Below, piece by piece: positions 15,797 through 51,156 of a stretch of 64,000 bases of DNA. Position numbers and translations under genes: made by a program. The notes beneath the pieces are model-generated. The model saw nothing but the letters and a program-made list of their open reading frames with translations, was not told the DNA's origin and ran no database searches. Position 1 is the stretch's first letter; each line of letters opens with the position of its first letter. Source of the stretch: Bacilli bacterium (GTDB lineage: Bacteria; Bacillota_I; Bacilli_A; RFN20; CAG-826); assembly GCA_024408505.1 (NCBI GenBank), contig JAKSUZ010000002.1:1337-65336 (forward strand), read 5' to 3'.

Positions 15797-16027
15797 TTAC
15801 TTTTTAATTTTGGCGCGAATTGCACTATATAAATCATTTACTTTTTTAAGATTTTTTAATTCGTCACTTGTGAACTCGATTCCGAACTCATCTTCTAATT
15901 CAAGTAATAGTTCTACGACATCTAAAGAATCAAGACCTAATTCACGTAATTCTTTTTCTGGATTGATGGCTGTTAGTTTTAATTTTTTACATAAAACTGA
16001 CTCAACCTTTTTAATTGCTTCTTCCAT
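15797..16027 (-). CDS. acpP: Acyl carrier protein
   Basis: LGLDSLDVVELLLELEDEFGIEF contains the DSL phosphopantetheine attachment motif. The likely start is the internal ATG at 16027 (MEEAIKKVE). Confidence 0.85.
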   Translation of the reverse strand: MEEAIKKVESVLCKKLKLTAINPEKELRELGLDSLDVVELLLELEDEFGIEFTSDELKNLKKVNDLYSAIRAKIKK

Positions 16028-16089
16028 AATTACTCCGCAACGAGATATATTATAGCAAAATAGCAACTTTTCTCAATAGAGAAGTTCAT

Positions 16090-16437
16090 CTACTCATATA
16101 GTCCGATTACTACACTTCTTTTGATTGATATTTTGTTATCGGTTTTTTGATAAATAATCGCTTTATATGGTTTTTCAATAACGTAATAGAAAGTATCGCC
16201 CTTTTTTACCGCCGTACAATCTTCCATAGCGCAGTAAATATCGGCATTTATTTCCTTTTTAACATATGAGCGAATTGATTCAGTAACTCCACCACTTTTA
16301 CTGATGTAATAGCCGACTGTAGCTGACATTGAATCAAGTTCACCATAAATCATTTCGGTTGCAACTAAATCGCTTGATAATAAAATAGCAACACTGGCGA
16401 CTAGCATTGAAAACATTAAAATAATTCGTTTACCCAT
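16090..16437 (-). CDS. Small N-terminally anchored protein, last gene of the unknown envelope operon
   Basis: One N-terminal TM helix (RIILMFSMLVASVAILL) followed by a ~90-aa soluble domain. Start candidates at 16437, 16443 and 16455 overlap the upstream stop. Confidence 0.55.
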   Translation of the reverse strand: MGKRIILMFSMLVASVAILLSSDLVATEMIYGELDSMSATVGYYISKSGGVTESIRSYVKKEINADIYCAMEDCTAVKKGDTFYYVIEKPYKAIIYQKTDNKISIKRSVVIGLYE

Positions 16438-17095
16438 GAACATACTCCTCAACAATGATAATTGTCACAATGATGACTAACATCACAATAATCGCGGTTC
16501 CAATAATGGCAGTCGCTTTAACTAATTCATATTGACGGTTGTTATCCCGCTCTTCATCATCATCCACAACTTTTTTTAATTTTAAATACGATTCATTAAA
16601 ATGAAGAAGATTTTCTTTACTAGCGTTTTCTTTATATCGATATAAGCTAATCATCACCTCTTCAATCAATACACTAGAAAAGTTTTTAGCGAGATTTAGA
16701 TAAGGTGATAATGATTGATCCTTTTCAATTTCGGTAAAAAATGTTTCTAGTTTTTGATTCATTTTTAAGGATGCTCTTTCTTTTAAATTCATTAGAGCAT
16801 CTTTTACATTAACCTGATTGTTTATATCTTGATATAAATAGCGTAGAAGAATAGTTAATTCTTTAATTTGATCAGTTACATTTTTACTATAAAGAAATAA
16901 ATATCGATAAAATGCAACTGCATTCACTAACACAATTAAAAAGATAAAGGGAATAAATAACAAATTATTTTTGGTAAAAATAAATGCTACCACCATTGTC
17001 GCTACAAGAAATACATTAATAATTAGAATTATGGTTAATTCTTTTTTGAAATTGATGTTAGCGCGATTAATGGCAACTTTAATATTATTCTTCAT
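16430..17095 (-). CDS. Polytopic membrane protein with a central helical cytoplasmic domain (TadB/TadC- or GspF-like topology, unverified)
   Basis: Two N-terminal TM helices, a ~110-aa charged helical segment and a C-terminal TM helix. The likely start, ATG 17095 (MKNNIKVAINR), overlaps the upstream stop by 11 nt. Confidence 0.55.
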   Translation of the reverse strand: MKNNIKVAINRANINFKKELTIILIINVFLVATMVVAFIFTKNNLLFIPFIFLIVLVNAVAFYRYLFLYSKNVTDQIKELTILLRYLYQDINNQVNVKDALMNLKERASLKMNQKLETFFTEIEKDQSLSPYLNLAKNFSSVLIEEVMISLYRYKENASKENLLHFNESYLKLKKVVDDDEERDNNRQYELVKATAIIGTAIIVMLVIIVTIIIVEEYVHG

Positions 17096-17783
17096 AGCGT
17101 TTAATCCTCCCACGTGTGGCTCGCATAAATAAATGAATACTGAATAAGAAGAAAACAAAATAGAAGATGATGCCGATTAGATAAATTCCGGTTTTAGTAA
17201 TTTGATCAAAATAACTATTAACCGCGAAGCGGATAACAATTAAAACCGAGAAAGAAATAATCCATAATAATGAAAACTCTACTAATGCTCTCCAAATACT
17301 TTTTTGTAAAACTTTTTGGTTTAAAAGATAATTATTGTTTTCTTCTAATAAAAACGAAATTGCCTTATCATGCTCTTCGCTTTTGTTATTACAAATCGAA
17401 ATTGTTTTTAAAAAGAGTTGATAAAGTGAAGACGAAAAATAATCAGTTAAACGTTCTAATTTTTCTTCACCTTTAAATTCTTCAAGCATCTTTACTTGTT
17501 CTTTTAAAGAAGCGGATACATTTTCTTGCGCAGCAAGCAATGCATTATCAAGCGAATAATCAACGCTATAAGCAAGAAAGAAATCATGGATAAAAGTTGT
17601 TAAATCTTTATTGTGCATTAATTGCAGTCTTTCTTTACGTTTGAATAAAAATTCGTAAATAACAAAATACGCTAAATAGATGACCATGGTCCCAATTAAG
17701 AAATAAAGATTATTAGTTAAATAATAACCAGCTAAACCCGCTAATAAAGAAACCATTATATAAATTACATAATCAAAAATCAT
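17085..17783 (-). CDS. Polytopic membrane protein with a central helical cytoplasmic domain (same architecture as 16430..17095)
   Basis: Two N-terminal TM helices, a ~120-aa helical segment and two C-terminal TM helices. ATGA overlap with the upstream gene. Confidence 0.55.
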   Translation of the reverse strand: MIFDYVIYIMVSLLAGLAGYYLTNNLYFLIGTMVIYLAYFVIYEFLFKRKERLQLMHNKDLTTFIHDFFLAYSVDYSLDNALLAAQENVSASLKEQVKMLEEFKGEEKLERLTDYFSSSLYQLFLKTISICNNKSEEHDKAISFLLEENNNYLLNQKVLQKSIWRALVEFSLLWIISFSVLIVIRFAVNSYFDQITKTGIYLIGIIFYFVFFLFSIHLFMRATRGRIKRYEE

Positions 17784-18172
17784 AGATCTGTCTCCTCAAT
17801 TTCATATGTCGTGCTTTTGTAGTAATCGTTTGCAAATGGGACCGCTGCCCGTAGAGAAATTCTTACACCGGTGACATAACGATCAGTCATTTCTTCTTTG
17901 CTTTTGCTATCAAAATAATAGAAACCAACTTGGAATTTATCCACATAGTGCGATAAATTATTTTTTAAATGTTCAATTGAAGTAGCTTCCACAATTTGCG
18001 TATCATAAACTGGAGTCGGAAGTGGACCTTCAATATCAGTCACAATCCAACTAGCCGGTAAAGAATAATTTAACGTAGTGAATGCATTATCAATTGATTG
18101 AAAGGTCGTAGTAGTAAATAACGCTACACCAGAAAAAGAAATAATAAATAAAGCGAAAATCATTAAGATCAT
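17780..18172 (-). CDS. Small N-terminally anchored protein
   Basis: MILMIFALFIISFSGVALF TM anchor plus a ~105-aa soluble domain. 4-nt overlaps on both sides. Confidence 0.55.
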   Translation of the reverse strand: MILMIFALFIISFSGVALFTTTTFQSIDNAFTTLNYSLPASWIVTDIEGPLPTPVYDTQIVEATSIEHLKNNLSHYVDKFQVGFYYFDSKSKEEMTDRYVTGVRISLRAAVPFANDYYKSTTYEIEETDL

Positions 18173-19212
18173 ATAATAACCTCTACGATTTTCTCGCGAA
18201 TGTTAACTTCCTCGTCTTGTCGCATAGTGTCACAAAATTCACTATCTTCACAATCACCGAAAAACTTTTTCATATAAGTCATCATGAATTTACCTTTAAT
18301 GGTGAAATCAGAATGACTATGAACTTCTAGTTCAATATAACACGGGAGAAACTTTAATTCCGCTGCGCCTTTAAACGGTAACATCAAATTATGATAAGGA
18401 AGATAGTTTTCTTTTTGAATTAACGAACTATCGTGAGTAATTGGATCATAATAAATGGTCGGAGCGAAAGTAAAGTAACATTCATCCCCGTCTTTATTTA
18501 ACGTTAACGGGATATATCGATACATCGATTCTCCGATCGGAAAATCAGGAAACAAATTATATCGATCATAAAACGCGAAGCGTAATTCACCATTTAAGGT
18601 ATTATCTAATCCATTACGATATTTAAAACGTAAATAAGAAATATCTAAATCGTAATAAACTTCATTAACTCGTAAGTCCTCGAAATTTAAGAAACTAAAA
18701 GCATCTTCATAATGGTAATCCTGACTATGATCTAAATATGTGCTTTCTTTGATGTAGCCGGTTGAGAATTCTTGCCCATTCGTGGTTTCACTAATTTCAA
18801 AAGAGTCAATGGTCTTAGTGTTATACGCTAAGGTCGCACGATAAGTACCTTCGCCATTAATTCTTGCTTCGCATACAAAAGTAATTGGCGAATTATCATC
18901 AAGGTCACGAATATTAATTTCGTTACAACCATATAATAAGACACTTTGTCGAATAGAAAGAGATGTGATAGCGCTACTACCACAAAGATGTGAATTACCA
19001 TTTTGATCTATCCAGGTGTAGTTGTAGTAACATGATTTATCAACCTTACGAACAAGGATATCAATATAAGCTGATAATTTAAGCGTTCCTTTAGAAGGAT
19101 TTTCATCCGTAATCCCAAATGCCACAAACTGAATACTAGGTGCATTAGCGGTCGTCATACTACAACAAGTTATCGCCAATGGAAGAAAAATAAATCTAAG
19201 CACTTTTTTCAT
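18169..19212 (-). CDS. Secreted or lipid-anchored protein of unknown function
   Basis: MKKVLRFIFLPLAITCCS is a signal peptide with possible lipobox Cys. AAGGAG RBS 9 nt upstream. 347 aa, Cys-rich, with no motif I recognise. Confidence 0.6.
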   Translation of the reverse strand: MKKVLRFIFLPLAITCCSMTTANAPSIQFVAFGITDENPSKGTLKLSAYIDILVRKVDKSCYYNYTWIDQNGNSHLCGSSAITSLSIRQSVLLYGCNEINIRDLDDNSPITFVCEARINGEGTYRATLAYNTKTIDSFEISETTNGQEFSTGYIKESTYLDHSQDYHYEDAFSFLNFEDLRVNEVYYDLDISYLRFKYRNGLDNTLNGELRFAFYDRYNLFPDFPIGESMYRYIPLTLNKDGDECYFTFAPTIYYDPITHDSSLIQKENYLPYHNLMLPFKGAAELKFLPCYIELEVHSHSDFTIKGKFMMTYMKKFFGDCEDSEFCDTMRQDEEVNIREKIVEVII

Positions 19213-19567
19213 AGTTTAGTTCTCCTTCTTCATTGATGGCATGAGTTTTCTTCAAGTTTTCATAAAATAAATTAATCGCTTCTTCACGAAATCTCTTATA
19301 TTGGCGTTTGGTATAAAACTCTTCCCACCAAAACGAGTAGTTTTGATAGAAGAAATCACACTTAATGATTTTGCGAAGATGGTATTGCATCGCAAAATAC
19401 GCGGTCTCCACCGCTAAAATAAACTTCTCCCATGGTAGATGTCTACGGCACGCCGTAGATACTGCATCATAGAATTCTAGTTCTTGATTATAATCGGGGA
19501 AGAAATTGTTCACCCTTAGTAAATGGTGATAAGTCTCCGCCACATTTTGAATTGTTCTTTCTTTCAT
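19196..19567 (-). CDS. Small cytoplasmic protein, first gene of the unknown envelope operon
   Basis: ATG at 19567 is preceded by a GGAGG RBS (the track start at 19579 lies inside the RBS). Rich in aromatic residues, no TM segment, no recognised motif. Confidence 0.5.
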   Translation of the reverse strand: MKERTIQNVAETYHHLLRVNNFFPDYNQELEFYDAVSTACRRHLPWEKFILAVETAYFAMQYHLRKIIKCDFFYQNYSFWWEEFYTKRQYKRFREEAINLFYENLKKTHAINEEGELNYEKSA

Positions 19568-19629
19568 AATAGCCTCCATTTGGGAATATATCCCTTATTA
19601 GGTTATTAAAGAAAAAGGCCAAAAATCCT

Positions 19630-19720
19630 CACGGAGGCCTCTTTTATATTTATTCTAAATATAACTTTTTTTCGAGTTTTTGGAAAAGTTAACCAAATCA
19701 CGCATTAGTTAACTTTTTTT
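19630..19720 (-). promoter_or_regulatory. 91-nt conserved intergenic element, copy A (upstream of the unknown envelope operon)
   Basis: Aligns without gaps to 40367..40457. A 36-nt core (19666..19701) differs at one position. Two GTTAAC palindromes (19688-19693, 19708-19713) are spaced 14 nt apart. Confidence 0.6.
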
Positions 19721-20375
19721 ACAATAAGCTTAGTTGTTGATAGTGTAAATCCTTGACTGGCTTATAGGAAAAACGATATTCAGAATCGATTGGACCGAGC
19801 TCTTTTAATAGTCTTAAATGTTCCTTAGTGGGATAACCTTTATGCTCTTTAAATTTATATTTAGGATATTTCTTATCTAATTCATCCATATAACGATCAC
19901 GAGCGACTTTGGCTAAAATCGAAGCGGCTGCTACGGCTAACGATTTTGCATCGCCTTTCACTAATGGAATTACCTTACATGCCTCCATTGGTAATGGCAT
20001 TGCATCGGTAATTACCATATGGTATTTATGTTTTAAGTTATGTAGTGCAGTTATCATGGCTTTTCTACTAGCTTCATAGATGTTAATCTTATCGATCTCT
20101 TTAGCGCTTATAAAACTAACCGCATAACTAAGTGCATCCTTTTTAATAATTTTTTCTAACGCTTCGCGTTTCTTTGTGCTTAGTTTTTTAGAATCATTAA
20201 TATCTTCGTTTTTATAATCTTTAGGAAAAATCACCGCAGCCGCCACTACTGGACCCACAATCGGACCGCGACCGGCTTCATCCGTGCCAGCAATAAAGTT
20301 AATCGTTTTAGAATAAAATTTCTTTTCAAAATCTAACATATTAATCGAAGTAAAGCTTACCGAGTTTGCCATCAC
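19719..20375 (-). CDS. rnhB: Ribonuclease HII
   Basis: AGTDEAGRGPIVGPVVAAAV catalytic motif. An alternative start at ATG 20339 lies 1 nt after the rbgA stop. Confidence 0.9.
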   Translation of the reverse strand: MMANSVSFTSINMLDFEKKFYSKTINFIAGTDEAGRGPIVGPVVAAAVIFPKDYKNEDINDSKKLSTKKREALEKIIKKDALSYAVSFISAKEIDKINIYEASRKAMITALHNLKHKYHMVITDAMPLPMEACKVIPLVKGDAKSLAVAAASILAKVARDRYMDELDKKYPKYKFKEHKGYPTKEHLRLLKELGPIDSEYRFSYKPVKDLHYQQLSLL

Positions 20376-27192: not shown

Positions 27193-27973
27193 GATAAGCC
27201 TCCAATAAATTAACTAACAATGTTAAACGGGTTAATAAACCAACACCACCAGGAACAGGTGTTTGTAATTTTACTTTTAAATTCGGTTCCGCGTCTCCGT
27301 GTAAACCAGTTTCATCACGATTAATTCCAACATCCACTACGACTGCGCTTTCTTTTAATTTAAATTCATGATTTAAGAAATGTTGATGACCAATTGCCAC
27401 TACGATAATATCCGCATGTGCTAAATAAAATTCCATATCGCTTCGAGTGGTCTTACTATGTAATTGAGTCACATTCGCGGATTCATTACGTAATAAGATT
27501 TGCATAGGTTTACCAACGATATTACTTCTTCCAATCACCACTGCATTCTTACCCATAATTTCAACCTTTTCACTTTTTAGATAATCAATAATTCCTTTAG
27601 GCGTGCAAGGAGAGAAGGTCGACATTGGATGAAAACCATCAACGTCTTTCTTTGGGTTAACCGATAACTTAATAATGTTTTCGTTAATGTGTTTTGGAAG
27701 TGGCATTTGAACGATTAAACCATGCACTTTAGGATTATTGTTATATTTGTTAATAAGTTTAATTAAATCTTCTTGAGAGATGGTTGGTTGTTGTTTATCT
27801 AAGATTACATTCGCTCCAACTTCCGCCCCGTCTTTAAGTTTTCCACGTACATAAGCATCGCTAGCGGGGTCATTATTAACTTGAATAATAACTAAACAAG
27901 GCTTTTCGCTAAGTTTACTTATTTCTTCTTTAAGCTCACTTTTTCTTTTAGTAACGTAATCTTTGATAATCAT
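27182..27973 (-). CDS. folD: Bifunctional methylenetetrahydrofolate dehydrogenase/cyclohydrolase
   Basis: LVIIQVNNDPASDAYVRGK, GLIVQMPLP, VVIGRSNIVGKP and PVPGGVGLLT motifs. Confidence 0.9.
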   Translation of the reverse strand: MIIKDYVTKRKSELKEEISKLSEKPCLVIIQVNNDPASDAYVRGKLKDGAEVGANVILDKQQPTISQEDLIKLINKYNNNPKVHGLIVQMPLPKHINENIIKLSVNPKKDVDGFHPMSTFSPCTPKGIIDYLKSEKVEIMGKNAVVIGRSNIVGKPMQILLRNESANVTQLHSKTTRSDMEFYLAHADIIVVAIGHQHFLNHEFKLKESAVVVDVGINRDETGLHGDAEPNLKVKLQTPVPGGVGLLTRLTLLVNLLEAYHGI

Positions 27974-28035
27974 AGTTAGTATTATATAACAAAAAAACTA
28001 TCATAAAGATAGTTTTATTAATAATAACTAGTTAA

Positions 28036-28341
28036 TTAAAGAACGTTAATTAAAGTAGTAATCGCCATCGCTAACTGAGTTGGCTGATCAGGATCAGGTT
28101 TTGGTTCTGGTGCTGGTTGAATGGCGCTAATTAAAATTGCTAGGAAGAAGAAAACAATGGCAAAACCAAAGGTTAACCAAGTAATTACTCTTTCGCTACC
28201 TCTTTCTTTAGTCTTAGCAAAAACGTTAAGTCCACCACCAGTAATGGCACCAGAAGCACCTTCTGATTTACCACCTTGGAGCAAACTTAAAACAATAATG
28301 ATTAATGCTATAACTAGAAAGATGTAATCATACCATTGCAT
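28036..28341 (-). CDS. secG: Preprotein translocase subunit SecG
   Basis: Two TM helices flank LLQGGKSEGASGAITGGG. It carries an extra Pro-rich C-terminal tail. Confidence 0.8.
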   Translation of the reverse strand: MQWYDYIFLVIALIIIVLSLLQGGKSEGASGAITGGGLNVFAKTKERGSERVITWLTFGFAIVFFFLAILISAIQPAPEPKPDPDQPTQLAMAITTLINVL

Positions 28342-28457
28342 AATTTATCTCGCCTTAATATCTTCGCATAATTAACTAATTATGCAAGTTAATAGTTTTA
28401 TATCAAAAAATATTGTTATTTCATATAAATTATTATATAATTTATATGGAGTTAAAT

Positions 28458-38556: not shown

Positions 38557-39213
38557 TTATCTTTTTTCATAATTTTTAACTTTCGCGACAATTAAAAAAT
38601 GTAATCGTTTGGGTTGCCCTTTTTTAATTAAAGAAAGTGAGGCTTTTAGAGTCGCACCAGTAGTAGATATATCATCCACAAATAATACTTTTTTATTATG
38701 AATCTTTTCTAAATTAGAAATTTCTAATCGATTAATAACTTTATTTCTTTCTTCTTTATTTAAATCAGATTGTTTATAGTTAGTTTTCTTTTTGATAATG
38801 GGAAGAATATTTAAATTTAATACCTTAAAAATCTCGATTACATGATTAAATCCTCGTTCTTGATCATCTCTTTCTTCACTAGGAGCAGGCACTAAGATAT
38901 AACCTCGATATTTTCTAGTTAATTCATCTTTAAAATAATTTAAAAATGCTTTCGCTAGTTCAATATCTCCACATCCTTTTAAGGTATAAATCTTTTCTTT
39001 CATATAATCCGAATAAGTAAATAAATATTCTCCACTTACTCCATTAATCTTTTCACTTTTTCTAATTGGAGAAAGTAAAGATAGACAACGATCACAAATA
39101 TTAATATCCGGATGAAGTAAAGCATGCAGATTATCAATCTTAATTTCGTTAAAGCACATTATGCAATACGATTTTTTATCTTGTAAGATAGGTGTTATCA
39201 AGCTTGATGGCAT
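38557..39213 (-). CDS. comFC: ComF-family phosphoribosyltransferase-like competence protein
   Basis: N-terminal CxxC...CxxC zinc ribbon and C-terminal PRTase motif VLFVDDISTTGATL. Overlaps comFA. Confidence 0.8.
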   Translation of the reverse strand: MPSSLITPILQDKKSYCIMCFNEIKIDNLHALLHPDINICDRCLSLLSPIRKSEKINGVSGEYLFTYSDYMKEKIYTLKGCGDIELAKAFLNYFKDELTRKYRGYILVPAPSEERDDQERGFNHVIEIFKVLNLNILPIIKKKTNYKQSDLNKEERNKVINRLEISNLEKIHNKKVLFVDDISTTGATLKASLSLIKKGQPKRLHFLIVAKVKNYEKR

Positions 39214-40333
39214 GAATGGCCTCCTTCATACTTTGACTTACTTTATTCGCTAAAAAAATCACTTCACCAGTTGGAGCGTCGATTTTTCTTCCTACTCGAC
39301 CAGAGATTTGAATTAAGACTCCACTATCATACATTTCATCATCAGCGTTATAGATAATGACTTGGACATCTTTGATTGTCACTCCTCTTTCTAATACTGA
39401 AGTAGTCACTAAATAGTCATATTTATGTTTTTTAAAATCGGTAATAATCTCTTTCCGGTCTAAACACTTTGAGTGCACAAAATGACCTTTCTTAACAAAT
39501 ATTTTTAAAATCGAATAAATGGATTCCGCTAGTGAAATAGTAGGCGCAAAGATTAATAGTGGTTTTTTATTTTTTCGATATTCTTTAATCTTTTTGATTA
39601 AATAAAAAATTTTAAAATAGCCAATCCGAATCACACTGATTGGCTCAGGTAAAGCGTGACGATGATAACGAGTATGAAGTTCTAAGATTGGTAAATTATT
39701 CTTTTTAAAATCATCCACAATATCTTTCGGTGGAGTTGCGCTCATTAAGATATATGAACCTTTAAGTGATTTTTTAAATAAATTAATTAATAAACGATTA
39801 TCACGAAAAGGAAAAGCATCGATTTCATCTAAGATTAATAAATCAAAATAATTTGTGTATCGATATAGTTGATGGGTGGTGAGAATAATAATATCGCCAG
39901 TGAGTTGATCAGTATGTCCGCCATATACGCATACACTCTTACGATTAGGGAACGCAGATATAAAACGTGGAAATAAATCAATCGCAACTTCTCTTCGAGG
40001 TACGGCAAATCCTATGTGCATGCCGTGCGAAAGGGCATAACTAACGACTCCATACACTAGCTCGGTCTTCCCGCTTCCACACACCGCATGCACTAGAGTT
40101 GATTTATTGTCTTTAAAATTCTCTAGTAATCTAGTCGAAATTTTGCCTTGCTCAGGTGATAGTGGATAAGTTAGACTTGCGCTAGTGTCTTCATCGTCTA
40201 CTTTGTAGCTATTTACCTCCCTTCCTTGAAATGAGATGCAAAGACGACAATATGTTTGATTATTCTTCATGCCAAAATAGCGTGGATCTGTGTTTCCGCA
40301 TCTTGGACATACATATATCGCATTACTTCCCAT
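39176..40333 (-). CDS. comFA: Competence DEAD/DEAH-box helicase ComFA
   Basis: N-terminal zinc finger CPRCGN...CRLC, Walker A CGSGKTE, DEID box, MSATPP and helicase C motifs. Confidence 0.8.
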   Translation of the reverse strand: MGSNAIYVCPRCGNTDPRYFGMKNNQTYCRLCISFQGREVNSYKVDDEDTSASLTYPLSPEQGKISTRLLENFKDNKSTLVHAVCGSGKTELVYGVVSYALSHGMHIGFAVPRREVAIDLFPRFISAFPNRKSVCVYGGHTDQLTGDIIILTTHQLYRYTNYFDLLILDEIDAFPFRDNRLLINLFKKSLKGSYILMSATPPKDIVDDFKKNNLPILELHTRYHRHALPEPISVIRIGYFKIFYLIKKIKEYRKNKKPLLIFAPTISLAESIYSILKIFVKKGHFVHSKCLDRKEIITDFKKHKYDYLVTTSVLERGVTIKDVQVIIYNADDEMYDSGVLIQISGRVGRKIDAPTGEVIFLANKVSQSMKEAIHAIKLDNTYLTR

Positions 40334-40366
40334 ATTAGTTAATACGGAAAATATTCAATTTTTCCA

Positions 40367-40457
40367 CACGGAGGTGTGTGATATTTATACAAGTATAAAT
40401 ATATTTTTTTCGAGTTTTTGAAAAAGTTAACCAAATCACTGACTTGTTAACTTTTTT
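40367..40457 (-). promoter_or_regulatory. 91-nt conserved intergenic element, copy B (upstream of comFA-comFC)
   Basis: Gap-free alignment to 19630..19720. The 36-nt core is 40404..40439. GTTAAC palindromes at 40426-40431 and 40446-40451 are spaced 14 nt apart. Confidence 0.6.
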
Positions 40458-40595
40458 AGCCAAGACTTACTTGCTAAGTCATAATAATGGTAGAAGGCAG
40501 CAAGGCTTGAGTATTGTACTCCCGTTCCTGTCTTCTTTTTTTGTTTAGAGCATTGTAATATTAATTTATTAAGTTATAATGATTTCGAAATAAAT

Positions 40596-40829
40596 ATGAA
40601 AGAAACAATTACCCTATCCATAAGCAAAGAAGAAAAAGCGCTTTTAATGAAAAAAGCTAAAGCGCAACGCCTTTCATTGACTTCATATATACGTTTAGTG
40701 TCTTTAAATCAAGCAAGAAAGGATTTAAATGATATCAAATTAAATAATACCGACTGGAATTTATTAATCAGCGAATTAGATAATCCCAGTAAACCTAACG
40801 AAAAATTAATTAAACTTTTCGCTAAATAA
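40596..40829 (+). CDS. TacA/DUF1778-like ribbon-helix-helix antitoxin (no GNAT toxin downstream)
   Basis: The pattern ITLSISKEEKALLMKKAKAQRLSLTSYI...WNLLISELDNPSKPNEKLIKLF parallels DUF1778 antitoxins (an RHH strand, then a C-terminal L..LD.P....L..L tail). Confidence 0.55.
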   Translation: MKETITLSISKEEKALLMKKAKAQRLSLTSYIRLVSLNQARKDLNDIKLNNTDWNLLISELDNPSKPNEKLIKLFAK

Positions 40830-50226: not shown

Positions 50227-51156
50227 TTATTTCTTCTTTTTATATAAACGACGCATATCCATGGTCATTAAGCGATTAGTGAATTCACCAGGATTAAGTT
50301 CTTTCGTATTGTTATCATACATCATCATCTTGGCATCTAAGTCATCGATGAAGTTTACTAAGATTGCTTCTTTAGTCGCGCCTAATACGGGTGAACCATA
50401 TTCATATTTACCATGACTAGATAATACGCAGTGCTCAATATGAATAATCTTTTCGTTTTCTTCTAAATGATATTTACTAGCCACATTATTAATCAAATTA
50501 GTGGCAATCACTAAATGACCAAGTAAATGTCCTTCACTAGTATATTCAATTGGTAAGAGCCCACTTAATTCTTTAATCTTGCCTAAATCATGTAAAAATA
50601 CGCTGGCTAAGACGATATCGCTATCAATGTCACTATAATGCTTAATTAAGAAGCTAGCGACGTCTAGCATGCTTACGGTGTGATAAAGTAGTCCACTTGC
50701 GAAGGCATGGTGATTATTACTCGCCGCGGGATAAGTTAAAATCTTTTCTTTATAAGTCTTATATAAATCATCTACAACGGTTTTAATATCTTTATCTTTA
50801 ATATTATTAAGATGCGCTTCTAATTTCTTTTGGAGTGTGTCTTTTGGAATTGGAGAAGTTGGGATGTAATCATCTAACTTAGTCACTTCAACTGAACGAG
50901 CATCTCTAATTCTTAACTCTAATTTATCTTTATACGATGTAACATCAAAAGAGATGTTCACAAATTTACCTGGTTTAAATATTTCTTGATCATCACTAGT
51001 CGCGTCCCATTTCTTCGCACTCATGGTACCACTTTTATCTTGAAGTAAAATGGTTAAAAGCTTTTTGTTATTAACCGTAACACTCATGGTTGCGCTTTTA
51101 ACTAAATATATTTCTTGGTAGGCGTCGCCTTCTTTAAGCGTATTAAGAAAAATCAT
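50227..51156 (-). CDS. yhaM: 3'-5' exoribonuclease YhaM (OB-fold plus HD domain)
   Basis: N-terminal OB-fold and an HD domain (FLHDLGK, GHLxxH). Confidence 0.8.
   Translation of the reverse strand: MIFLNTLKEGDAYQEIYLVKSATMSVTVNNKKLLTILLQDKSGTMSAKKWDATSDDQEIFKPGKFVNISFDVTSYKDKLELRIRDARSVEVTKLDDYIPTSPIPKDTLQKKLEAHLNNIKDKDIKTVVDDLYKTYKEKILTYPAASNNHHAFASGLLYHTVSMLDVASFLIKHYSDIDSDIVLASVFLHDLGKIKELSGLLPIEYTSEGHLLGHLVIATNLINNVASKYHLEENEKIIHIEHCVLSSHGKYEYGSPVLGATKEAILVNFIDDLDAKMMMYDNNTKELNPGEFTNRLMTMDMRRLYKKKK

Follow-up and report, generated by a model that had tools for sequence, protein, structure and literature searches.

A composite intergenic element upstream of comFA and of an orphan operon in uncultured gut Bacilli: a candidate shared promoter and control region

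The window, by which is meant the whole 64,000-nt stretch of DNA analysed here, derives from a group of uncultured, reduced-genome gut Bacilli; to our knowledge, nothing is known about gene regulation in this group, and a literature search on competence regulation in Acholeplasma or RF39-type Bacilli found nothing. Two intergenic sites of the window, called copy A and copy B, carry related sequences, and each lies ahead of a minus-strand operon (Table 1). The operon behind copy A begins with the gene for A1 (19196–19567, 123 aa) and further encodes a 347-aa lipoprotein-like protein, a 130-aa protein, polytopic membrane proteins of 232 and 242 aa, a 121-aa protein and an acyl carrier protein; apart from the last, Pfam and PHROG searches gave no match to any of them. 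The order of these genes is kept in four relatives (L134, L137, L138, L139). Judged by eye, the 232- and 242-aa proteins looked TadB/C-like, and an assignment as a Tad or competence pilus operon was considered and rejected. Pfam found T2SSF (GspF) in 0 of 40 remote relatives of the 232-aa protein, and Foldseek with its model (pLDDT 92) gave no PilC, GspF or TadB match in the PDB. Copy B precedes comFA and comFC, followed by secA; homologs of comFA bear the name ComFA in JGI, and the gene is the most widely conserved of those found behind the element.

Table 1. Features of the two copies of the element and the operons behind them (window coordinates)
Feature	Position	Strand	Description	Basis
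Operon behind copy A	15797–19567	-	7 genes, orphan except acyl carrier protein	ORFs
Copy A 5' leader hairpin	19580–19596	-	AAGGGATATATTCCCAA	Hairpin kept in orthologs with different sequences
Copy A module 5	19602–19609	-	TTAATAAC, -10-like, 17–18 nt after module 4	Core alignment, hexamer table
Copy A module 4	19619–19643	-	CCTCCGTGAGGATTTTT block, -35-like position	Core alignment, hexamer table
Copy A H2	19644–19664	-	Perfect all-AT palindrome, TTATATTTA-GAA-TAAATATAA	Palindrome scan
Copy A spacer	19665–19683	-	CG box and A-run (CCAAAAACTCGAAAAAAAG)	Part of 36-nt core
Copy A H1	19684–19717	-	Stem-loop with GTTAAC in each arm	RNAfold, arm complementarity, conserved in 11 copies
comFA–comFC operon behind copy B	38557–40333	-	comFA 39176–40333, comFC 38557–39213	Pfam DEAD/Helicase_C/ResIII, Pribosyltran
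Copy B module 5	40339–40344	-	TATTAA, -10-like hexamer	Hexamer table
Copy B module 4	40356–40380	-	CACACACCTCCGTGTGGAAAAAT, includes CACGGAGG at 40367–40374	Core alignment, hexamer table
Copy B H2	40381–40402	-	Perfect palindrome, ATATTTATAC-TT-GTATAAATAT	Palindrome scan
Copy B spacer	40403–40420	-	CG box and A-run (TCAAAAACTCGAAAAAAA)	Core match, spacer identity
Copy B H1	40421–40456	-	GTTAAC at 40446–40451 and 40426–40431	Folding, arm complementarity

The most similar part of the two copies is a 36-nt core, TTTTTTTCGAGTTTTTG[G/A]AAAAGTTAACCAAATCAC, which occurs at exactly two sites in the window (19666–19701 and 40404–40439, both on the plus strand) and is identical at 35 of 36 positions; none of 100 dinucleotide-preserving shuffles matched it, even with up to three mismatches. 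This agrees with the preliminary description of the sequence, which was also right about the CACGGAGG block common to both copies (19630–19637 and 40367–40374), about how far the copies lie from the start codons (62 nt from the ATG at 19567 and, for comFA, 33 nt from the ATG at 40333) and about GTTAAC-N14-GTTAAC, found at 19688–19713 and 40426–40451 and nowhere else in the window. GTTAAC alone is not enriched, with 21 sites observed against 21.8 expected. A gapless alignment over 91 nt had also been described, and of this the shared blocks stand while the gapless extent and the length do not: the copies are offset by 20737 at CACGGAGG and by 20738 at the core, without gaps the 91-nt stretches agree at 47 or 60 of 91 positions, depending on the offset, a 1-nt indel separates the CACGGAGG block from the core in the MAFFT alignment, and by nhmmer the similarity covers about 125–130 nt, beginning with the A-run that precedes the first GTTAAC and reaching as far as the ribosome-binding site or ATG. 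A possible third copy near secG/folD (28160–28450), indicated by a weak nhmmer match and a 12-bp AT palindrome, was rejected, the region being secG coding sequence and an ordinary promoter.

Read on the gene strand, the element is a series of modules: an A-run, an inverted repeat (H1), a T-run and spacer, a second A-run, an AT palindrome (H2), a -35-like block (module 4) and a -10-like block (module 5). The two GTTAAC hexamers are the arm cores of one long inverted repeat, AAAAAGTTAACCAAA ... TTTGGTTAAC(T/A)TTTT, in which the pairing reaches the A-run and T-run on the outside and gains up to four further pairs on the inside. The flanks of each hexamer lack symmetry about the hexamer itself; their axis of symmetry is the centre of the loop, and the arms measure up to 15–21 nt. 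In copy A, where H1 begins directly after the rnhB stop codon (19719–19721), the hexamers lie at 19708–19713 and 19688–19693 with the A-run on the 5' and the T-run on the 3' side, and the stem predicted by RNAfold has 13 bp, among them one U.G pair; copy B has the weakest stem in the family. Overall, H1 forms a single stem of 10–21 bp that departs from Watson-Crick pairing only by T.G or G.T, as read on the gene strand (pairs were counted by script, the MAFFT alignment being unsuitable because it places the N14/N15 gap inside GTTAAC). Its right arm and adjoining loop (GTGATTTGGTTAAC) are far better conserved than its left arm.

The 36-nt core consists of the spacer of copy A and the right arm of H1. 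In each of the 14 copies measured, H2 is perfectly palindromic despite a total length that varies from 17 to 24 nt, and it shows compensatory T-A to C-G changes in three copies (W_B, L062, L134) and symmetric arm insertions in a MAG from horse. Module 4 of copy A holds CACGGAGG, read on the gene strand. The position of the promoter is a placement from sequence: throughout the family a -10-like block lies 16–18 nt past a CG-containing -35-like block, both matching the sigma-70 consensus poorly (2–5 of 6 and 3–4 of 6 positions), and a simple promoter scan chose a different weak site in copy A, TTTCCA-17-TATATT. At comFA, which lacks a Shine-Dalgarno sequence, module 5 ends 5 nt before the ATG in copy B and 5–6 nt before it in 4/4 comFA orthologs carrying H1; in L144, a 56%-identical relative without the element, a TATA box is also found 5 nt before the ATG. 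The leader of copy A carries a hairpin about 7 nt after module 5 and immediately upstream of the ribosome-binding site GGAGG (19573–19577), and its orthologs form theirs from other sequences, namely GAGCA..TGCTC (L138, L134), GGGC..GCCC (L137) and GGGGAA..TTCCC(C) (L139).

A narrow clade of uncultured Bacilli, sampled as MAGs and metagenome contigs, contains at least 15 related copies at five kinds of locus; the search covered part of each genome, and the putative regulon members are the genes behind the copies found there. Besides comFA–comFC and the orphan operon after rnhB, these are three further orphan genes, coding for a coiled-coil protein, a membrane protein with a C39-peptidase domain and a 160-aa protein. 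The downstream gene starts 80–130 nt from the AT palindrome (190 nt in L026). The module occupies the orthologous position upstream of comFA in L001, L002, L049, L003 and L142, and upstream of A1 in L134, L137, L138 and L139, while the remaining intergenic sequence around both genes does not align among relatives. The proposal of a conserved, oriented, gene-proximal sequence common to comFA and the orphan operon is thus borne out. That the two window copies share an orientation, which had been offered as a clue, is correct and says little, because about 50 of the 59 ORFs of at least 110 aa are on the minus strand; what carries weight is that each of the 15 copies found is directed at a gene start. 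This orientation also rules against a dispersed repeat inserted without regard to direction. With two copies in the 64 kb of the window, 15/15 facing a gene start and no ending at terminal repeats, the element is not MITE- or REP-like in the DNA covered. Neither 193 kb of clade DNA, in which no additional copy was found, nor viral contigs and JGI metagenomes, which gave chance matches only, hold further copies, and therefore the element is not a prolific repeat; the viral and JGI scans show no sign of a phage-borne or widespread element. A genome collection was scanned with the pattern GTTAACN{6,7}GYGAWWTGGTTAAC; the matches listed, which covered the genomes of two relatives, also include conserved loci of Bradyrhizobium, related Alphaproteobacteria and Companilactobacillus.

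Not every part of the module is kept everywhere. At the operon-A locus H1 has decayed or been lost in L137 and L139, as it has at comFA in the more distant L003 and L142, with the rest of the module retained; at the L137 site a different terminator-like hairpin takes its place. The CG box is missing in L138 and L139. The spacer, too, is deleted or decayed in orthologs (L137, L139), so that neither it nor H1 can be essential in every genome. The upstream gene is co-directional in seven copies and divergent in three (W_B, L049 at 951, L002). As a separate observation, H1 is kept in these three copies, where no insulation is needed because the upstream gene is divergent, which speaks against a role as insulator.

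The spacer clusters by genome and not by locus: identity is 0.91 between the window copies (W_A and W_B), compared with 0.56–0.70 between W_A and its own orthologs, and 0.84 between JAZ_A and JAZ_B. The preliminary description had seen selection on half-sites rather than recent duplication, a view at odds with this genome-wise grouping of the sequence next to the hairpin. The pattern points to concerted evolution or co-evolution, and short-tract gene conversion, rather than a co-evolving factor, could have produced it.

The best reading of the element is a regulatory role. On balance, the sequence comparisons suggest that it is probably a shared promoter with an upstream control region, serving a small, clade-specific set of transcription units. 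Transcription would start 6–8 nt past module 5, so that the comFA mRNA would be leaderless and the operon-A mRNA would carry a stem-loop at its 5' end. The putative core promoter, consisting of the CG-containing module 4 and of module 5 (TAATAA/TATTAA), appears weak and so would probably need a dedicated factor that reads module 4 and/or sequences further upstream. H2, following its A-run, would be located at about -50 to -70 and appears to be maintained for its self-complementarity and not as an operator of fixed spacing. H1 with its two GTTAAC would lie at about -95 to -130, as a terminator-like hairpin whose sequence is nonetheless apparently constrained; most likely it stops transcripts that enter from the gene upstream, which is rnhB for copy A, and would leave expression to the regulated promoter. 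Like intrinsic terminators, including bidirectional ones, H1 forms a stem-loop between a preceding A-run and a following T-run (T4–5), often directly behind a stop codon (that of rnhB in the window, of valS in L026). Unlike them, it has an AT-rich stem (3–4 G-C pairs) and a loop of 7–14 nt, its sequence is conserved far beyond the needs of termination, and it is present behind divergent genes too; a consensus terminator scan made no call.

A1 would be the best candidate for the factor and would then regulate its own operon. Its structure model (pLDDT 83.5) weakly resembles small phage sigma-like regulators: the best BFVD matches are phage 'transcriptional regulator', ECF sigma, sigma-70 region 4, YlxM-like and DUF1492 proteins, with probabilities of up to 1.0 and E-values of 0.05–4, and roughly 20 of 50 weak structural matches in the PDB are sigma factors, all of the matches being insignificant (E ≥0.05). 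Sigma domains gave no Pfam match in A1 at E ≤0.1, and PDB sequence searches with A1 and A4 profiles yielded nothing informative. A 76%-identical homolog, P0145, is encoded inside an ICE-like cluster of genes for an integrase, SSB, DprA-like, ArdC-like, topoisomerase, primase and VirB4/TraG-like proteins. We take A1 to be comparable to the small sigma-like late-gene activators of phages and ICEs (ArpU/RinA-type, DUF1492, Tn916 Orf7-like), which it resembles in being small and all-helical and in its best model matches; it differs in that these are all weak (TM about 0.4–0.5), with no Pfam or PHROG match. A bolder version, which is unlikely as a whole, would have A1 descend from a phage or ICE, with a minimal sigma-like fold, and be domesticated as the dedicated factor of a regulon made up of its own envelope operon and comFA–comFC, reading modules 4 and 5, with H1 as insulator and H2 as a structure-dependent upstream element. 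If true, these gut Bacilli, a Mollicutes-like lineage, would have assembled a functional counterpart of ComX/SigH from unrelated components.

A comparison with ComX/SigX cin-box and SigH-type promoters shows parallels: a short conserved block before comFA and other units, oriented toward the genes, a T-rich tract upstream and a small sigma-like candidate reader. The box of the element, TNCGAAAA, is loosely similar to the cin-box (5–6 of 8 positions). The differences are that L138 and L139 lack the box, that none of the other members is a known late competence gene, and that the candidate factor has 123 aa and no Pfam sigma domains. The cin-box, TACGAATA (PMC6224593), was searched with up to one mismatch on both strands of both copies and gave no match, the nearest sequence being CTCGAAAA (5 of 8 positions); the K-box, AAAA-N5-TTTT, does not occur on either strand of either copy. 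A reading of the CG box as a ComX/SigH-type -10, with H2 as 5'-terminal mRNA hairpin, was set aside, because the box is absent in L138/L139, matches no known box, and the geometry at comFA puts the likely start beside the ATG. A competence regulon does not emerge either. In a check for comE, comG, dprA, ssb and recA, comFA–comFC are the sole competence genes among the members found in the part of the genomes covered, and the other genes behind copies are orphans.

The strongest alternative to a regulated promoter dispenses with a dedicated regulator. A housekeeping promoter and a terminator hairpin would have been duplicated as a reused ("mobile") cassette and homogenised by gene conversion, the similarity reflecting common descent and not co-regulation. 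Reuse of this kind is known in prokaryotes, where groups of highly similar promoters precede different genes (PMC3575422), and like them the element puts similar upstream regions before non-homologous genes, within and between related genomes, and shows signs of copying and homogenisation. In the horse MAG, two pairs of copies, one before comFA and the C39 gene and one before the coiled-coil and 160-aa genes, are about 96% identical in the compared spacer and module-4 segments, the genes behind them being unrelated. The grouping of spacers by genome, the functionally unrelated orphans behind the copies and the differing gene order (rpiB-element-coiled-coil gene in JAZLFE, rpiB-tacA-element-comFA in the window) fit as well. 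Against this, the copies at comFA and A1 are old and positionally stable in at least five genomes each; GTGATTTGGTTAAC and module 4 are kept, although a generic terminator or promoter would not need them; the core promoter is weak for a housekeeping one; and JAZ_A shares the genome-specific box but not the flanking H1 homology on which conversion would draw. The element also differs from the reused promoters of PMC3575422 as a long composite of two hairpins and a core promoter, with low copy number, stability at two loci across the clade and neither transposase nor terminal repeats. Such a cassette is thus a rather unlikely explanation; were it true, the finding would be an ordinary one.

A transcribed RNA leader or attenuator seems quite improbable. 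Transcription would start upstream of H1 or enter from the upstream gene, H1 and its U-run would be a conditional terminator, and H2 with module 4 would form alternative structures or a protein platform deciding read-through. Both hairpins look like structures in their variable lengths, compensatory changes and wobble pairs confined to the gene strand, and folding z-scores are -2 to -5 for most copies; the seven co-directional upstream genes would allow entry. One copy, on the other side, has a z-score of -0.98, the three divergent copies leave only 65–140 nt for an upstream promoter, and several orthologs have lost H1 and kept the remainder. Rfam gave tRNAs only at gathering score in the window and no match at E ≤1 in L049, which has two copies. 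No convincing alternative pairing was found either. Long-range pairing of the CG box (box 1) with module 4 around H2 was tried and set aside, leaving U.U mismatches in the two copies of the window and in two of those from horse; it fits L002, L049_cc and L061, with an apparent compensatory change.

A two-site model building on the preliminary description, in which two dimers of a competence regulator would bind two GTTAAC palindromes on one DNA face and define a competence regulon, is very improbable. In its favour, every copy with H1 has GTTAAC unchanged in both arms, the centre spacing is near two helical turns and comFA is the most widely conserved member. Against it, the symmetry is that of one inverted repeat, the unequal conservation of its arms is unlike two equal sites, the spacing changes between N14 and N15 among relatives (20 or 21 bp from centre to centre) and H2 measures 17, 19, 20, 21, 22, 23 or 24 nt, unlike a fixed-spacing dimeric operator, H1 is dispensable at both loci, the other members are not competence genes, and neither window copy has a cin-box or K-box.

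For the shared promoter and control region, the module ties comFA–comFC to a clade-restricted orphan membrane operon and a possible sigma-like factor, which gives a testable handle on a regulon and may bear on the control of DNA-uptake genes in these Bacilli. Its parts evolve differently: the hairpins persist as structures, the spacer is made uniform inside each genome, and the leader differs from locus to locus.

The 36-nt core TTTTTTTCGAGTTTTTG[G/A]AAAAGTTAACCAAATCAC occurs twice in the window, with one difference between the two sites, as the preliminary description had it; allowing up to 3 mismatches, it was matched in none of 100 dinucleotide-preserving shuffles. The arrangement GTTAAC-N14-GTTAAC is confined to these two sites within the window, which has 21 GTTAAC hexamers in all against 21.8 expected. 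Start codons do lie 62 and 33 nt away, if the ATG at 19567 (with GGAGG ahead) and the comFA ATG at 40333 are taken. A gapless 91-nt alignment had been claimed, and its blocks are indeed shared, but there is one 1-nt indel between the CACGGAGG block and the core, since their offsets between copies are 20737 and 20738. The similarity reaches past 91 nt, starting at the A-run that precedes the first GTTAAC and continuing as far as the ribosome-binding site or the ATG. Both copies do have the same orientation, but this is uninformative by itself because the minus strand carries about 50 of the 59 window ORFs of at least 110 aa. G+C content is 33.7% across the window, which is read with the standard genetic code. 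Its ComFA is 100% identical across 95% of its length to the public protein P0001, located on a 135.5-kb contig.

Features of the window and of loci from relatives (window coordinates unless a locus, L, is named)
Feature	Position or locus	Strand	Context
Core, copy A	19666-19701	+	
Core, copy B	40404-40439	+	
Copy A	between rnhB stop (19719) and seven-gene operon (19567 to 15797)		ahead of minus-strand operon
Copy B			ahead of comFA-comFC; secA next
A1	19196-19567	minus	123 aa, first gene behind copy A
comFA-upstream copies	window; L002; L001/L037 (JAZLFE01); L049 at 381 (Horse_feces345 MAG)		ComFA 88% identical in L002, 82% in JAZLFE01
comFA-upstream copies without GTTAAC hairpin	L003; L142		ComFA 70% and 66%
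A1-upstream copies	window; L138; L134; L137 (JAZLFE01); L139		directly after rnhB wherever the contig extends far enough
Copies at small coiled-coil protein gene	L049 at 951; L062		
Copy at C39-peptidase-domain membrane protein gene	L026		
Copy at 160-aa orphan gene	L061		further partial copy at L061 start
folD start region	27973-28040	minus	
Start of ComFA ORF	40271-40333	minus	21 codons
Hairpin and T-run	~40487-40545	+	ahead of TacA-like gene
TacA-like antitoxin gene	40596-40829	+	
ARAGORN tRNA-Asn call	50681-50756	+	anticodon ATT
309-aa ORF	50227-51156	minus	contains the tRNA-Asn call
Coiled-coil protein genes	L049 433-819; L062 5667-6038; L002 3-314	L049 and L062 minus	fragment in L002
Leader of C39-peptidase-domain gene	L026 3270-3460	minus	190 nt
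ICE-like cluster	L140 1-20522		

On the gene strand, the parts follow the order A-run, H1 (an inverted repeat with GTTAAC in each arm), spacer, H2 (an all-A/T palindrome), module 4 and module 5. Module 4 reads (T/C)T(T/C)CG(T/C)G-NN-CA-TTTTT, the complement of CACGGAGG, and the hexamer ahead of its T-run (GTGACA, GTCACA, GTGGCA and similar) is like a -35 box. Module 5, a -10-like block (TAATAA, TAATTA, TATTAA or TATTAG), lies 16-18 nt downstream. The best-supported reading of this arrangement, at moderate confidence, is a shared promoter with an upstream control region. Transcription would start 6-8 nt past module 5, a placement to which three observations point. All four comFA copies with H1 have no Shine-Dalgarno sequence and an ATG 5-6 nt after module 5, a geometry kept even in L144, a ComFA relative (56% identity) that has no element but does have a TATA box 5 nt upstream of an ATG without Shine-Dalgarno. 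Each of the four closest copies at operon A has a hairpin, different in sequence from genome to genome, that begins where transcription is predicted to start, some 7 nt past module 5 and ahead of GGAGG; the Shine-Dalgarno sequences of other units also begin there. Weak hexamers at both the -35-like and the -10-like position fit a promoter that would need an activator or else an alternative sigma-like factor. Elsewhere in the window, folD shows an apparent TATAAT 7 nt before an ATG without Shine-Dalgarno, suggesting that leaderless mRNAs may not be unusual in this organism.

Copies were collected from the comFA and operon-A gene loci of relatives and by a hairpin-pattern scan of species-representative genomes; genomes were searched as fragments, and copies and regulon members are counted among the matches listed. 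At least 15 related copies are present, the window included, every one facing a downstream start codon. A search of 193 kb of clade DNA with an HMM of the core brought up no additional copy, and scans of viral contigs and JGI metagenomes gave chance matches alone. Given these negative searches and the element-less L144, the family is limited to a narrow clade, at low copy number (two in the window, at least five in the horse MAG, Horse_feces345). Promoter reuse is a described phenomenon (PMC3575422), and a promoter-terminator cassette reused without a dedicated regulator would agree with the near-identical copy pairs in the horse MAG and with the unrelated genes behind the copies; this explanation is unlikely. 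Conserved loci that match the hairpin pattern GTTAAC-N6-7-GYGAWWTGGTTAAC are also present in many genomes of Bradyrhizobium, of related Alphaproteobacteria and of Companilactobacillus (among L005-L083); the few inspected are unrelated to the element.

H1 has the form AAAAAGTTAAC(C/T)AAA - loop - TTTGGTTAAC(T/A)TTTT. Its two GTTAAC hexamers are the arm centres of a single inverted repeat, and pairing extends on the outer side into the A-run and the T-run and on the inner side by 2-4 pairs (RNAfold stems of 10-21 bp), while the flanks of each hexamer are asymmetric about it. Some copies have 14 nt between the hexamers, others 15, and the right arm near the loop, GTGATTTGGTTAAC, is conserved far better than the left. 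Wherever the stems depart from Watson-Crick pairing, the pair read on the gene strand is T.G or G.T (at the first inner position in three copies, and also in L138 and, by eye, L134) and no A.C pairs were seen in the stems, which suggests that the stem may be read as gene-strand RNA. H1 is lost or decayed in several relatives. At the A1 locus of JAZLFE01 (L137) it is replaced by a small hairpin and T-run, GCGTAA-CTT-TTACGT-TTTT, resembling a deletion remnant, with the JAZ-type box, H2 and modules 4-5 kept; L139 has the right-arm remnant TTTCGTTAATT alone, fused directly to the A-run; L003 and L142 have the A-run, H2 and TATTCGCG without H1. This leaves the A-run, H2, module 4 and the following -10-like block as the universal core, with H1 and the spacer as sub-clade additions. 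Most simply, H1 would block read-through in a genome of mostly co-directional genes, judging by where it sits, directly behind stop codons, by its gene-strand-only wobbles and by the other terminator-like hairpin at the L137 site. Its strong sequence conservation and its presence beside divergent genes show that it is also under some more specific constraint. An RNA leader or attenuator, with a start upstream of H1, would account for the structural conservation but is distinctly improbable: some copies lie in divergent contexts, orthologs have lost H1, and neither an alternative pairing nor an Rfam match was found. Least probable is the original proposal of two GTTAAC dimer sites for a competence regulator, as the symmetry is that of one inverted repeat, the arms are unequally conserved, H1 is dispensable and the known competence boxes are absent.

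All 14 copies in which H2 was measured have it as a perfect palindrome, with arms of 7-12 nt, a loop of 0-3 nt and a total of 17-24 nt. Compensatory T-A to C-G changes occur in L062, L134 and the window comFA copy, and in the horse MAG insertions in one arm are matched in the other. Selection for self-complementarity, as a hairpin or cruciform, agrees with this pattern, and a dimeric operator whose half-sites keep a fixed spacing does not. H2 is conserved structurally, at roughly -50 to -70 from the predicted start. The spacer comprises some 13 nt followed by a CG box and an A-run; the sequence is AAAAACTCGAAAAAAA in the window and horse MAG and TTTT(T/A)CGTG(T/C)AAAAA in JAZLFE01. It groups by genome, not locus. 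That of copy A is 0.91 identical to copy B and 0.83 to the horse comFA copy, against 0.56-0.70 to its own orthologs; that of the JAZLFE01 A1 copy is 0.84 identical to the comFA copy of the same genome, against 0.56-0.64 to orthologs. H2 and the leader group by locus (TTATAT...ATATAA at A1, ATATTTAT...ATAAATAT at comFA). The spacer grouping reflects either short-tract gene conversion or co-evolution with a factor reading the spacer. The history appears to lean slightly toward co-evolution, since the JAZLFE01 A1 copy shares the box with no H1 homology on its left side for conversion to use.

The closest functional analogues are the promoters of competence sigma-factor regulons, from which the element differs in having no cin-box (sequence per PMC6224593) and no K-box, and A1 in having no Pfam sigma domains. 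Nor does the element fit Rfam families or a fixed-spacing operator, or show MITE-like properties. It would thus appear to be a new, clade-restricted shared cis-regulatory promoter module, of a kind already known.

A1 has 14 homologs among 5.8 billion cluster representatives and no Pfam or PHROG family assignment. An AlphaFold model built with these homologs is all-helical (pLDDT 83.5), and Foldseek returned nothing significant for it. The best viral-library matches are weak (E 0.05-4, probability up to 1.0): phage 'transcriptional regulator', ECF sigma factor, sigma-70 region 4, YlxM-like HTH and DUF1492 proteins. Among the PDB matches, also weak, sigma factors make up about 20 of 50 listed chains by the author's count, sigma-E region 4 included. 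Together with the presence of an A1 homolog (P0145, 76% identical) inside an ICE-like cluster, these matches make A1 a candidate small sigma-like regulator, as a lead. The L140 cluster encodes an integrase, SSB, DprA-like and ArdC-like (ArdC-N/MPTase) proteins, topoisomerase, primase and a VirB4/TraG-like ATPase; the A1 homolog there has 173 aa with an acidic C-terminal extension, and the other operon-A genes are absent. Of the operon-A products, Pfam and PHROG recognise the last alone, an acyl carrier protein. The 232- and 242-aa proteins had seemed TadB/TadC-like by eye, which was not supported when tested on the former: 40 of its 177 remote relatives (exhaustive HMMER search) were scanned and gave no T2SSF or other informative Pfam family, and no PilC, GspF or TadB structure in the PDB matched its model (pLDDT 92). 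Operon A remains an orphan membrane-protein operon.

The public ComFA annotation (P0001, 364 aa) begins 21 codons inside the ORF start and so is without the N-terminal CPRCG zinc-ribbon motif kept in full-length homologs (380-390 aa). Between the comFA control region and rpiB is an orphan TacA-like gene (Pfam TacA1, E = 2e-11) without an adjacent acetyltransferase toxin; no obvious gene lies ahead of it for the hairpin and T-run there to terminate. In JAZLFE01, an element copy and a coiled-coil gene follow rpiB at the corresponding position instead. Coiled-coil proteins adjoin comFA or rpiB in three relatives and are absent from the window; they share the C-terminus RLDYIVKAN(N/K)LKD and have weak DUF16/XhlA-like matches. 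The tRNA-Asn call is probably a false positive; the Rfam tRNA model is silent there. In L026, the leader separating the element copy from the C39-peptidase-domain gene contains a long-range stem, GGGCAATA...TATTGCCC, and a short ORF beginning MKKFSLVSHMLIV, which could encode a precursor peptide for the C39 peptidase.
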